Part shown: piece by piece, positions 39,755 through 60,451 of the stretch | Layout of the letters: every line of letters begins with the position of its first letter | Position numbering within the stretch: position 1 is the first letter of the stretch | Program-made: the position numbers and the translations under genes | Notes under the pieces: model-generated | What the model was told of the DNA's origin: nothing | What the model saw: only the letters and a program-made list of their open reading frames with translations | Databases searched by the model: none | DNA from: Eledone cirrhosa | Lineage: Eukaryota | NCBI GenBank assembly: GCA_964016885.1 | Contig: OZ024743.1 | Span: 310,558,001 to 310,622,000 of the forward strand | DNA: 64,000 nt | Reading direction: 5' to 3'

Positions 39755-40125
39755 ATAGTATATTTGGCAATATACCGTATGTTTAATTAAAAACATGTAG
39801 AAGACCATTCGCTATCAGTTTTAAAGTAGTGACTATGTCACTTACTTATATTTTCGGCAAAAGGTGAGAGAATGGCTGACAGCTGTTTCTCGCTGCTTGG
39901 CGTTTATCAAAGCCACGCACTCACCCGCCTTGCCGAAAATTATAGAAGCTGGATTCTTATAGAATTCCAGTAATAATCAGGAGCTGATTACACAGAGCGA
40001 TTGCCGGTCCAGCAAAAATTAGGTATTATTATTGGTGCTCTGAAATAGCGATATATACATGAATGTATATTTGGCAATATACCGTATGTTTGATAAAAAA
40101 CATTTAGAAGACAATTCGCTATGAG
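39755..40125 (-). repeat. Retrozyme-like ~310-bp unit (1.2 copies) with U3-A8 HHR at 39873-39915
   Basis: gtatatttggcaatataccgtatgttt at 39758 and 40065. tggct-TTGATAA-a cgc caagca gcg a-GAAA-cagct-GTC-agcca. Confidence 0.82.
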
Positions 40126-40444
40126 AGCCCCATATATACATATATATATATACATGTAATCTGATCTTTTCGAATATTAATAATAACATTTGATTCGTTT
40201 GCAATTATGCAAACAACCCTTATTTTTAAAGCCATATCAGTAGAATTACAAACGAATCGAATGTTATTAATATTCGAAATATTCAGATTACATTTACAGT
40301 ATTCAGCCATGTAGAGCAACATTTTACACACACACACATATGTATATATATATATATATATATATATATATATATATATATATATATATATATGAGAAAC
40401 GTAGAATAAGAAAATTATAAAATTAACTTACTTACTAATATATC

Positions 40445-40526
40445 ACTTCCAACTAATTAGTTTCTGGAATGGAGTAAATATGTTTTCCGAAGAAGATATT
40501 GAAAAGCATTCCGTCGTCAGGGAAGT
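40445..40526 (-). ncRNA. Type-I hammerhead ribozyme (sister copy 40967-41048 has A9T)
   Basis: Reverse complement of the 41698 motif. Confidence 0.85.
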
Positions 40527-41697
40527 CTATTTTCATCCAAGTTACCAGGCAAAGCCAGGACGCTGGAAACTTATTAAAAAATAATTCAGTGGATAGGAAA
40601 TAGCAAAGCGTGGACTGAATTCCCAGCCATTGAGAAAATCACTGCCTCTACGTCTGTGGCAAATTCAAAAAGAATCAATCACGTGACATCGAGGTCAATC
40701 AGTGGAAAGTGGTTTGCTAATAAGACGGCGGCCTACCTACTACCATAGCAGCAGTCATGGCCAATATTGCTCGACAAATAATTTGGAGATAATAATAAAG
40801 AATTTATATCTAGTAACATATATATACATACAGATGCATATCAATGCTAGCAGATATATAGGTTTTGTCTTAGTAACATTGTGGTTCAATGCATGGGGTT
40901 GCAGAACAATAATATGAGAAACGTAAAATAAGAAAATTATGAAATTAACTTACTTACTAATATATCACTTCCAACTAATTAGTTTCTGGAATGGAGTAAA
41001 TATATTTTCCGAAGAAGATATTGAAAAGCATTCCGACGTCAGGGAAGTCTATTTTCATCCAAGTTACCAGACAAAGCGAGGACGCTGGAAACTTATTAAA
41101 AAATAATTCAGTGGATAGGAAATAGCAAAGCGTGGACTGAATTCCTAGCCATTGAGAAAATCACTGCCTCTACGTCTGTGGCAAATTCAAAAAGAATCAA
41201 TCACGTTACTAAGACAAAATGTTACTAAGACAAAATGTTACTAAGACAAAATGTTACTAAGACAAAACCTATATATCTGCTAGCATTGATATGAATCTGT
41301 ATGTATATATATATGTTACTAAGACAAAATGTTACTAAGACAAAATGTTACTAAGACAAAACCTATATATCTGCTAGCATTGATATGCATCTGTATGTAT
41401 ATATATGTTACTAGATATAAATTCTTTATTATTATCTCCAAATTATTTGTCGAGCAATATTGGCCATGACTGCTGCTATGGTAGTAGGTAGGCCACCGTC
41501 TTATTAGCAAACAACTTTCCACTGATTGACCTCGATGTCACGTGATTGATTCTTTTTGAATTTGCCACAGACGTAGAGGGAGTGATTTTCTCAATGCCTA
41601 GGAATTCAGTCCACGCTTTGCTATTTCCTATCCACTGAATTATTTTTTAATAAGTTTCCAGCGTCCTGGCTTTGCCTGGTAACTTGGATGAAAATAG

Positions 41698-41779
41698 ACT
41701 TCCCTGACGACGGAATGCTTTTCAATATCTTCTTCGGAAAATATATTTACTCCATTCCAGAAACTAATTAGTTGGAAGT
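41698..41779 (+). ncRNA. Type-I hammerhead ribozyme
   Basis: acttcc-CTGACGA-c GGAATG...CATTCC a-GAAA-ctaatta-GTT-ggaagt, with palindromic stem III AACTAATTAGTT. Confidence 0.88.
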
Positions 41780-42218
41780 AATATATTAGTAAGTAAGTTA
41801 ATTTTATAATTTTCTTATTTTACGTTTCTCATATTATTGTTCTGCAACCCAATGCATTGAACCACAATGTTACTAAGACAAAACCTATATATCTGCTAGC
41901 ATTGATATGCATCTGTATCTATATATATGTTACTAGATATAAATTCTTTATTATTATCTCCAAATTATTTGTCGAGCAATATTGGCCATGTCTGCTGCTA
42001 TGGTAGTAGGTAGGCCGCCGTCTTATTAGCAAACCACTTTCCACTGATTGACCTCGATGTCACGTGATTGATTCTTTTTGAATTTGCCACAGATGTAGAG
42101 GCAGTGATTTTCTCAATGGTAGGAATTCAGTCCACGCTTTGCTATTTCCTATCCACTGAATTATTTTTTAATAAGTTTCCAGCGTCCTCGCTTTGCCTGG
42201 TAACTTGGATGAAAATAG

Positions 42219-42300
42219 ACTTCCCTGACGACGGAATGCTTTTCAATATCTTCTTCGGAAAATATATTTACTCCATTCCAGAAACTAATTAGTTGGAAGT
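42219..42300 (+). ncRNA. Type-I hammerhead ribozyme
   Basis: Same as 41698-41779. Confidence 0.88.
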
Positions 42301-57457: not shown

Positions 57458-57580
57458 TCCATACGATTGTTTCGTTATAAGAATTCTACAAGTTGGGATA
57501 AATAAAGTCCAAATTATGTAGAAACTTGTATATAATCCATAGATATACACACAAGCGGTCCCTTATAACTCATCAGTGGA
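57458..57580 (-). ncRNA. Type-I hammerhead ribozyme with very long stem II insert
   Basis: tcca-CTGATGA-GTTATAAG..(~80 nt)..CTTATAAC-GAAA-caatc-GTA-tgga. Confidence 0.8.
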
Positions 57581-58116
57581 TGCCCATAAAATATTGATAT
57601 GAAAAATTACATCGATCTTAATAATTAGTGATGGTCTCCGTCAGTGCTAGAAGGACAGCTAAATTTGAAAAGCCAGAAGTCCTTCAAAAACATAAAAATT
57701 TACACTGTCCCCAAAGGGGAAAGTGGAGATCATCGTAAAATATAAAATAATATACACGCTGGTCATTGAAACCTGTTAGGTATTTTAACCACGTGTTTAA
57801 GAACTCACTTGGATATTTAAAAAATAAATATATGTATGTACCAACTATACACACAGAGAGATATTTAAAAAATAATAAATATATGTACGTACTATCTATA
57901 CATACATATAGGTATTTTCTCAGGCAAGAATATCAGACACGAGATATAGAAAAATGCAATCATATATATGTGTATATATATATATATATATATATATATA
58001 TATATATATATATATATATATATATATTGGAGGTGAGTTTTATTGTAGCACAATAAAGCAATGCAAATATCGGATAAGTAGCACTCAACAGAGTTTATAG
58101 GACTGGAATATAAATA

Positions 58117-58488
58117 ATATAAAATCAAAAGATAGTTAAAATAGTTCCATGTATTTTATGCGCATTTCAAAAACAAATATCATCATGGGTGATATTTGCG
58201 TTCTAATCAGATAAAATAGGGAGACATGATATGAAGCTTAAAAAACACTTGCGAGCAGTGAAGTGTCAAATCAACATATGTTGATTTGACACTTCACTGC
58301 TCGTAAGTGTTTTTTAAACATGTATGTTGATTTGACATTTCACTGCTCGCAAATGTTTTTTAAGCTTCATATCAATTCTCCCTATTTTATCTGATGAGAA
58401 CGCAAATATCATCCCATGATGATATTTGTTTTTGAAATGCGCATAATAAAATACATGGAGCTATTTTAACCATCTTTTGATTTTATAT
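58117..58488. repeat. Fold-back pLTR-like element with a duplicated ~45-bp segment at the apex
   Basis: 58117-58278 versus 58279-58488 reverse complement. atgttgatttgaca..tttttaa occurs twice. Confidence 0.88.
58383..58453 (+). ncRNA. Type-I hammerhead ribozyme
   Basis: tattttat-CTGATGA-gaac GCAAATATCATC ccat GATGATATTTGT tttt-GAAA-tgcgc-ATA-ataaaata. The mirror copy has CTGATTA. Confidence 0.9.
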
Positions 58489-58671
58489 ATATATATATAT
58501 ATATATATATATATATATATATATATATATATATTAGTTAACTTAAATCGTCTCTATTGTATTGTTTTCATATAAACAAAATAAAATATCTCTTGCTTTT
58601 TTCAATAATATAAATAATTGTATATATATATATATAACGAAGGAAATATATATATATATACATATATATAT

Positions 58672-59765
58672 TTACGTGGATTTTTTACGTCTTTATGTGG
58701 GAGCTAAGTATATGTTTTGTTTATACCATTACTTATTTGCATAGGTAAGTATATATTACCCGTATGTTTCGTGAAGGTACGTATACCTTCTCGTACGTAT
58801 ATTTGATTGTTTATGTTATGGCGTATAATTTTTTTATTTTTTATTCTGGTACATATGGTTTGGCGATGTGTATACGTGAGTTTTGGGTCTGTGCGAGTAT
58901 GCAGGTTCGTACGTATGTAGGGTGTGTTTATATGTGTACTTCATGTTTTGGTTGACTTAACTCTCCGAACATTCGTGTATTTACATGTAGGTATGTGTGT
59001 GTGCTAGTTATATACGTATTTATTTATTTATATACATTTATATAATTATTTATTTATTTGTATACACGCATACACACACACACATTTATATGTGCGTGGT
59101 TTTGTATACCTATGGTAATTGTTTTGCGTATGCTTGTGTATGTACGTATTTGTTTGCGTGTATGTATTTATTTATTTCTATTACTTCTGTATTGTATTTA
59201 TTTACTTTGTTCTTAACTCTGTAGCGGAGATTCATTCGGTCTCCTAGTTAGAATTTTAGTCTACGACTTCTGCTATACCATTTACGTGGTTTTGTCTTTG
59301 CGTGCTATTGTTCTCCACGCTTCACATATGACGTATTACCTTCGTTTTTTCGTTCATTGCCAGAGAACGTCTCTATGAACCACCTAAGAGAAAATTAGTC
59401 TACGACCTCTTTTATACGATAAACGTGGTTCTGTCTTTGCGCGTAATTGTTTTTCACCGCTCCTATTAATGACGTATCTTATTCGTTTTTTCCCGTTCTT
59501 TTCCAGCGAACGTTTCCACGAAACAAAGTATCGTCTTCCTGTCTTCCTCCGGTTGCAACGTTTTTGGAAATATCCACTTCTGCGTTTACAGATTGACTTT
59601 GTTAGTTTCAGAAGATCCCGTTAAGGGTGAAAGCAGCGATTCTTTGCTTAAACTTTAATCTGTTATTTTAATAAATACTTGCTCTACGGTTCTTATATAT
59701 TTGATATGTATTTTCCTTATCGAGCCCTCTTTGGATTTAGGTCTTGAAGTTTATTATTATTACTA
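58672..59765 (+). repeat. Solo pLTR (~1.1 kb) of the 54.5-kb PLE family with A4-variant HHR at 59604-59654
   Basis: Colinear with 55885-56870 plus 57080-57240. agttt-CAGAAGA-t CCC gttaa GGG t-GAAA-gcag..ttg-CTT-aaact. Confidence 0.9.
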
Positions 59766-59827
59766 TATATATATATATATATATATATATATATATATAT
59801 ATATATATATATATATATATATATATA

Positions 59828-60451
59828 CAAAATTAGAATTGGTGCTCTGAAATAGCGTTATATATATGAATGTATATATAGTGTATTTTGCAATACACTG
59901 TATGCTTAATTAAAAGCATTTCGAAGACCTTACGCTATTGTTATAGAGTAGTGACAGTTTCACTTACTTTAAATTTTCAGCAAACAGGGGAGATAAAGCT
60001 GACAGAGCTCTGTTTCGTACTGATTGGTACTTATCAAAGCCAATACTCCACCTGTTTGCTGAAAATCATGAATGTTTGATTCTTATAGAATTCTAGTAAT
60101 AATCAGGAACTGATTATACAGAGCGAATGCCGGTCAAGCAGAAATTGAGAATTAGAATTGGTGCTCTGAAATAGCGATATATATATATATGAATGTATAT
60201 ATAGTGTATTTTGCAATACACTGTATGCTTAATTAAAAGCATTTCGAAGACCTTGCGCTATTGATTTAGAGTAGTGACAGACTCACTTACTTTAAATTTT
60301 CAGCAAACAGGGGAGATAAGCTGACACAGCTCTGTTTCGTACTGATTGGTATTTGATTCTTATAGAATTCTATAAGAATCAAACATTCATGATTTTCAGC
60401 AAACAGGTGGAGTACTTGGCTTTGATAAGTACCAATCAGTACGAAACAGAG
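59828..60451 (-). repeat. Retrozyme-like ~320-bp unit (~1.65 copies plus inverted piece) with U3-A8 HHR at 59998-60040
   Basis: aattagaattggtgctctgaaatagcg at 59831 and 60150. gct-TTGATAA-GTAC caatca GTAC-GAAA-cagagctct-GTC-agc. Confidence 0.88.

Follow-up and report, generated by a model that had tools for sequence, protein, structure and literature searches.

Why do three small repeats carry a hammerhead ribozyme motif whose core departs from the canonical sequence at both bases of one tertiary pair? The question is raised by a 64,000-nt stretch of the genome of Eledone cirrhosa (GCA_964016885.1, contig OZ024743.1, positions 310,558,001 to 310,622,000; hereafter the window), in which an initial annotation made from the letters alone had recognised a retrozyme-like family of 310-340 nt, arranged in partial tandems at three loci. 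The repeats fall into three subfamilies (A, B and C, one per locus) of a non-coding tandem family that numbers thousands of copies in the genome and bears a type I hammerhead motif. Positions 3 and 8 pair as U-A in A-C and as C-G in two sister subfamilies, D and E. The family is likely a non-autonomous retrozyme copied by Penelope-like elements (PLEs) of the Hydra clade.

Hammerhead units at the three loci

All three loci carry, on the minus strand of the window, a type I hammerhead motif with the core UUGAUAA, as had been read before, and the stem III palindromes (ACAGCUGU, ACGAUCGU and ACAGAGCUCUGU in A, B and C), the stem II arms (CGC/GCG, CGCT/AGCG and GTAC/GTAC) and the GUC sites are those that the initial annotation described. 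Motif A (39874..39914, minus strand) has U3 at 39910, A8 at 39905 and an A10.1/A11.1 mismatch (39903/39890), with predicted cleavage 3′ of C17 at 39878. The intact B motif (52446-52486) has U3 at 52482, A8 at 52477, a C10.1/A11.1 mismatch and C17 at 52450. Motif C (59997..60041, minus) has U3 at 60037, A8 at 60032, the canonical G10.1-C11.1 pair, a 4-bp stem III and C17 at 60001, and is borne on a long extended stem I (about 59972-60067). The motifs contain U4 G5 A6 N7, A9, G12 A13 A14, A15.1-U16.1 and H17; the literal C3-G8 is absent as a subfamily state in A, B and C, the published U3-A8 variant standing in its place. Across the family stem II has 3-4 bp, the stem III palindrome 8-12 nt, and stem I is extended. 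An Rfam scan with E values up to 1 gave no hammerhead match at the three loci.

At 311, 343 and 320 nt, the full units are homologous to one another, sharing 67-78% identity, in agreement with the proposed family of partial tandems. Unit A (39752..40062, minus) reaches with its 3′ end into a (TA)n tract (39716-39763), and beside it lies a 5′-truncated tandem copy without ribozyme that resembles a pseudo-long terminal repeat (pseudo-LTR; 40063..40125, minus). The full unit of B (51978..52320, minus) bears a second, decayed motif (52124-52164) with G12>C at 52139, the intact core being located in the 5′-truncated tandem copy (52319..52502, minus). At the third locus a tail of about 31 nt, corresponding to the start of the next unit (59831..59862, minus), adjoins the (TA)n target (59764-59827), and the full unit C (59862..60181, minus) belongs to a young subfamily, its best copies being 96-98% identical. 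Its 5′-truncated tandem copy (60185..60354, minus; unit positions 150-320) starts past the first half of the core, and an inverted 5′ arm (60354..60451, plus; unit positions 77-174; core 60422-60428) stops within stem III. Each locus has one intact ribozyme motif. No open reading frame (ORF) of 150 or more amino acids runs across any full unit. Non-coding tandem units with one type I hammerhead each support the retrozyme-like assignment.

Given 23 whole units, RNAalifold recovered stems I-III and the extended stem I unprompted, with a consensus of three helices round the core and stem I open. Single-sequence folds of the short motifs did not yield the hammerhead. The C unit folds well below its shuffled versions (z -6.35); its lowest-energy fold pairs the 5′ strand of stem I with part of stem III, and the penalty for imposing the hammerhead on the circular C unit is only 1.6 kcal/mol.

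Copies and subfamilies across the genome

The assembly comprises 3.0 Gb and is rich in retroelements. DNA searches with the three units returned 1,519, 3,042 and 1,984 first-look candidates, scattered over many contigs; among the 40 candidates scored in each search the best copies were 96-98% identical for C, 90-95% for A and 77-88% for B. From these searches 70 loci with 1.5-kb flanks, picked as best matches and including the copies of the window, were fetched. No LTR-internal-LTR arrangement was seen in their layouts (primer-binding sites and polypurine tracts were not searched for). Two sister subfamilies carry C3-G8: D, of 311 nt, is 77-80% identical over the unit ends, and E is 89% identical to A over 301 nt.

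One stem II design, followed over the whole genome, gave 49,388 matches with C3-G8, homology being shown for only part of them (groups D and E), against 2,513 with U3-A8. Controls gave 0, and the U3-A8 matches, set against 0 in the reversed control, are therefore not due to chance. The wider superfamily is mostly canonical C3-G8. Hence the earlier statement that strict CUGANGA searches would miss the family holds for subfamilies A-C and fails for the wider family; about 5% of this hammerhead design escapes strict CUGANGA and Rfam descriptors genome-wide.

State and covariation of the 3-8 pair

The fetched loci contain 99 ribozyme matches, from which 6 belonging to duplicate loci and 4 truncated ones were removed. 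U3-A8 is found in 87 of the 89 parsed copies, the others being U3-G8 (1) and G3-A8 (1), and none has C3. When positions 3 and 8 were left free in the search pattern, U3-A8 accounted for 98 of the first 100 listed of 1,216 matches of subfamily C and for 63/65 of subfamily A, and C3-G8 for 38/41 of subfamily E (with two U3-A8 and one G3-G8). Since copy counts and free-position patterns agree, U3-A8 is the fixed state of A-C and not a product of local decay from CTGATGA, the outcome that would have undone the original proposal.

The two states coexist in one family. In an alignment of 36 copies from the five subfamilies, selected from the fetched loci, the 3-8 pair is UA in 25, CG in 11 and unpaired in none. 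Ten of the 13 pairs are altered on both sides and 91.6% of the cells are paired, cells being sequences rather than events and the shuffle control ignoring kinship. A15.1-U16.1 is present in 36/36. The covariation at 3-8 is real within the family: A and E, close relatives, differ at both bases, and single mismatches at 3-8 are rare. Throughout subfamilies 10-30% apart the rest of the core is constant, while stems I-III and the 3-8 pair change in pairs.

Within subfamily C, stem II varies from GUAC/GUAC to GCAC/GUGC in 22 of the first 100 listed copies, with 1 mismatch and 4 wobble forms, a variation that may represent one event. The alternation of CAC/GUG with CGC/GCG in stem II of A and B was given no independent weight: each change is a transition of the CpG type, and CpG columns decay at 2-3 times the rate of the others.

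The 10.1-11.1 pair behaves differently from one subfamily to another. At the window loci G10.1-C11.1 is replaced by A-A in A and by C-A in B, and is kept only in C. The tallies among copies are G-C 29/31 in C, A-A 18/21 in A (including 2 motifs of other families) and C-A 11/16 in B.

As a separate observation, 10.1-11.1 is loose across the whole hammerhead design, with U-U, A-U, A-A, C-A and G-C. In a highly abundant C3-G8 hammerhead repeat, of which the window holds an example at 23188-24261 (core 23494, minus), positions 10.1 and 11.1 are frequently a mismatched U-U.

A second family of the window, first noticed at 111-196 and unrelated to the units, had been cited for its TTGACAA. That copy does read UUGACAA, but the commonest core of its family is UUGAAAA (20/22 parsed). 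The family repeat (1-290, plus; also 17574-17735 and 44976-45193; L152) forms the 3′ terminal repeat of a decayed PLE of the Hydra type; that element starts about 3 kb ahead of the window and carries a further copy of the repeat at its 5′ end. Among the first 100 listed of 709 matches, 68 are U3-A8, 30 C3-A8, 2 U3-C8 and none C3-G8; 29 of them read CUGAGAA, an amplified variant that is either a C3-A8 mismatch or a core without N7 plus an extra A. The family thus shows a second U3-A8 lineage, and yet one in which copies whose 3-8 is unpaired, or whose core is shifted, have multiplied as a group. It lends weak support to U3-A8, because 30 of those first 100 copies have the unpaired C3-A8.

Insertion anatomy and the putative helper

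The insertions share a defined anatomy. Among 67 distinct loci, 49 have a 5′-truncated tandem copy and 32 an inverted arm; a tail is found at the 3′ end in 28, on the inverted end in 13 and at both in 1, and (TA)n stands at the 3′ end in 59/67. In Craig et al. 2021 (PMC8557442) a partial tandem, an inverted 5′ copy and a tail of 30-40 nt at one end are described as PLE anatomy, and (TA)n targeting together with hammerheads in the repeat as traits of the Hydra clade. The present insertions show this PLE anatomy in full, including the 5′ truncation and the microsatellite target. Loci 1 and 3 of the window are themselves inserted in the (TA)n end of another shared repeat (39603-39757 and 59652-59825), found also at 17819, 29656 and 56874, a case of nested insertion into microsatellites.

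The unit has a constant 3′ end, some 140 nt downstream of the predicted cleavage site. Full units would therefore have been copied across that site, from a circle or from an uncleaved multimer. The 5′ truncations show no obvious pile-up at the cleavage site in the 67 loci, which were chosen as long matches and in which some values are artefacts of internal palindromes.

Arrays run to 13-18 units, with no ORF between units. Two D insertions, L167 (G000:C1:1239720-1244450) and L168 (C1:5388570-5392840), contain 14 and 13 near-identical units of 310-311 nt, respectively, 99.9% identical within an array and 99.2% between arrays, spanning both arms. Each has a direct arm, an inverted arm of several units and, within (TA)n, a tail of 31 nt. 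These arrays fit repeated copying of one circular monomer, with expansion after insertion as the alternative.

As to the helper, the genome contains a young PLE family with two intact ORFs of 745 amino acids bearing RWR, DKT, CxCX5C, YRDD, CxxC and CxH. They match the Hydra-clade traits given in PMC8557442, among them a C-terminal GIY-YIG and TA targeting, with RWR in place of RWK, an assignment set by motifs and not by a tree of the reverse transcriptase (RT). Judged from target and anatomy, the Hydra-clade PLE with these ORFs is the likely helper.

A model of copying and its alternatives

What is observed is a hammerhead motif with U3-A8 fixed in it, compensatory substitutions, the layout of the insertions and intact Hydra-type ORFs; from these we infer the steps that would lead from cleavage to copying. 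A transcript through a partial tandem would cleave itself at GUC, which probably takes place in the monomer for C and in dimers, held by their palindromic stem III, for A and B. The unit-length RNA would circularise. The Hydra RT/GIY-YIG protein would nick (TA)n and prime at the internal TA-rich point of the unit, and the RT would copy more than one unit round the template, giving rise to tandems, inverted arms and the tail of about 31 nt. Selection on the ribozyme would act on few master templates, the inserted copies then decaying. The distinction between monomer and dimer cleavage follows from the costs of the forced fold, 1.6 kcal/mol in C against 6.3 kcal/mol in the A monomer, and from analogy with the hammerheads of PMC4209133; in these terms monomer cleavage is likely for C, and dimer cleavage by way of the palindromes for A and B.

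A number of results weigh against this model. The 6.3 kcal/mol demanded by the A monomer is one of them, and 10.1-11.1 is unpaired in 21/36 aligned copies, A and B lacking the pair. A tree of 40 units, built with positions 3 and 8 masked and without 15 rows in which the core could be read as neither UA nor CG, groups A, C and E against B and D at its starred branch, so that 2 switches at 3-8 are needed; a single U3-A8 clade is, however, not rejected (p-AU, approximately unbiased test, 0.17), and the covariation is the record of few events between subfamilies. Compared with other non-CpG positions, the core is no better conserved among copies in C (p 0.59) or A (p 0.20) and only slightly less mutated in B (p 0.047, uncorrected). 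Long copies are favoured in the sample, since loci were chosen as best matches. The evidence for rolling-circle copying comes from D only, because the sole long C array is old, its 16 full units being heterogeneous and only 89% identical to one another. Finally, local alignment of four units against seven targets gave no meaningful match to Hydra or Penelope 3′ ends, the only match being that of D to a hammerhead repeat at 16.8 kb (z 13); the helper is inferred from target and anatomy because the unit has no similarity to the tested Hydra 3′ ends.

Two alternatives deserve discussion. According to the first, which we regard as unlikely, the unit is the pseudo-LTR, or 3′ end, of an autonomous PLE not yet found, and its copies are 5′-truncated insertions of that element. 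The Hydra elements of this genome do show the same tandem, inversion and tail anatomy, the similar-looking 111-196 family is such a pseudo-LTR, and PMC4209133 locates U3-A8 hammerheads in PLE repeats. Upstream of the unit, however, the 70 loci listed have either another unit or unrelated flank; arrays of 14-18 units occur without an intervening ORF; and no unit flanking an ORF with RT and GIY-YIG was seen in the 70 loci with their 1.5-kb flanks. PLE protein matches lie in the flanks of 11/70 loci, the other 10 beyond L062/L151 being judged by coordinates. The candidate L062/L151 was rejected as a pseudo-LTR, since the 3′ untranslated region of the PLE there is unrelated.

The second alternative, to which we likewise give little credit, holds that the ribozyme of A and B has little or no activity and is not needed for copying, these subfamilies spreading from read-through tandem transcripts and the paired changes reflecting few inherited events. 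It draws on A-A and C-A at 10.1-11.1, where according to PMC3088659 U-U is the best-tolerated mispair, on the near-neutral decay among copies, on the C3-A8 group multiplied in the 111-196 family and on the Naiad PLEs, which spread without canonical hammerheads (PMC8557442). Against it speak the otherwise constant core between subfamilies whose stems I-III and 3-8 are altered in pairs, and the change of both 3 and 8 between A and E, where single mismatches hardly occur. The near-neutral rates of the copies would fit selection confined to a few master templates, with inserted copies decaying neutrally afterwards. The earlier reading keeps its ground in the compensatory changes of stems I-III and in the true C3-G8/U3-A8 swap between close sister subfamilies, the latter giving it stronger support than the letters of the window could. 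Its step from covariation to selection was somewhat overstated, because the events are few, decay is near-neutral in A and C, and A and B have no 10.1-11.1 pair.

Amplification as satellite DNA with an incidental hammerhead likeness, suggested by the tandem arrays, is highly improbable, because the insertions share one 3′ end, are truncated to differing extents at the 5′ end, include inversions and lie at (TA)n, the copies moreover being dispersed on many contigs and the structure covarying.

The preferred reading, a retrozyme moved by Hydra-clade PLEs, can be carried further, though what follows is put forward tentatively and is possible rather than probable. The roughly 50,000 motifs of the genome could constitute a natural mutagenesis series of one retrozyme superfamily, in which the 3-8 pair flipped repeatedly and 10.1-11.1 relaxed to A-A, C-A or U-U without loss of function, and Hydra-clade PLEs could have produced the 13-14-unit arrays and inverted arms by rolling-circle reverse transcription of circular monomers. 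This would name the helper clade of animal retrozymes and provide genomic evidence for a circular template.

Comparison with known systems

Non-LTR retrozymes were defined by Cervera and de la Peña 2020 (PMC7229834), and Li et al. (bioRxiv 10.64898/2026.07.22.740005) argue that they derive from PLEs. As described in these two sources, those of metazoans resemble the present family in their non-coding tandem units of 170-400 nt with one type I hammerhead per unit, their palindromic stem III, their highly self-paired unit and the co-existence of PLEs. The Eledone family is set apart by the U3-A8 core of subfamilies A-C, by the mismatched 10.1-11.1 of A and B, and by insertions mostly of 1-2 units with PLE-type inverted arms and tail. 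Published non-LTR retrozymes are expressed as circular RNA; for the A-E family a circular RNA is predicted.

The core variant itself is not new, natural U3-A8 hammerheads being already in print (PMC3088659, and PMC4209133 for those of PLEs). Perreault et al. 2011 (PMC3088659) report natural covariation at 3-8, cite earlier in vitro activity and describe 10.1-11.1 mismatches, there U-U; here the swap can be traced between sisters 89% identical and the mismatches are A-A and C-A. The Cercyon PLEs of Schistosoma mansoni (Cervera and de la Peña 2014, PMC4209133) likewise have U3-A8 for C3-G8 and a link to PLEs, with about 1,300 matches against at least 2,513 here. Their hammerheads are described as minimal motifs with a long stem II, mostly in single copies, whereas here stem II has 3-4 bp, stem III is palindromic, stem I is extended and the unit is non-coding and repeated in tandem. 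With the Hydra-clade PLEs of PMC8557442 the family shares (TA)n targeting, partial tandems, the inverted 5′ copy, the tail and a hammerhead in the repeat; it differs in having no ORF and no detectable similarity to the tested Hydra 3′ ends, Hydra being a putative helper. No description of this particular family was found in the literature searched, supplements and repeat databases lying outside the search.

By its sequence features, then, the family is a further non-LTR retrozyme with a published core variant and a predicted function, and a specialist would be little surprised by it because both the class and the variant are in print. Its interest lies in the clean comparison that it offers, two sisters at 89% identity in which the tertiary pair has changed at both bases, and in the young arrays, whose layout agrees with a TA-targeting PLE having copied a circular template. 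Two questions thereby become testable: the need for PLE-linked hammerheads in spread, and the identity of the PLE clade that mobilises retrozymes.

Other elements of the window

The young Hydra-type PLE is represented in the window at 7031-11271, with RT at 9092-10099 and GIY-YIG at 8457-9134, both minus. It has an inverted arm of about 1 kb and a C3-G8 hammerhead with a long stem II, and many near-identical copies exist, some with open 745-amino-acid ORFs. Further PLE ORFs lie at 31400-33839 (minus), 38102-39295 (minus) and 54611-55874 (plus); one has DKG and Pfam RVT_1/GIY-YIG matches (canonical type), and two are Hydra-like without Pfam matches.

The distant homologue of D (z 13) is an inverted and tandem hammerhead repeat at 16374-17551, with cores at 16637 (minus) and 17219 (plus) and a GUU site. 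The Rfam hammerhead matches of the window were those to HH9 at 16584 and 17201 only, both sub-threshold. Broken ORFs of a LINE-type (long interspersed nuclear element) endonuclease and reverse transcriptase occupy 3691-6496 (plus), and two inverted, decayed Helitron-like copies, 94% identical, are located at 19713-22468 and 61206-64000. Two C3-G8 hammerhead-like motifs with a long stem II and a short palindromic stem III are found at 36617 (plus) and 58391 (plus).

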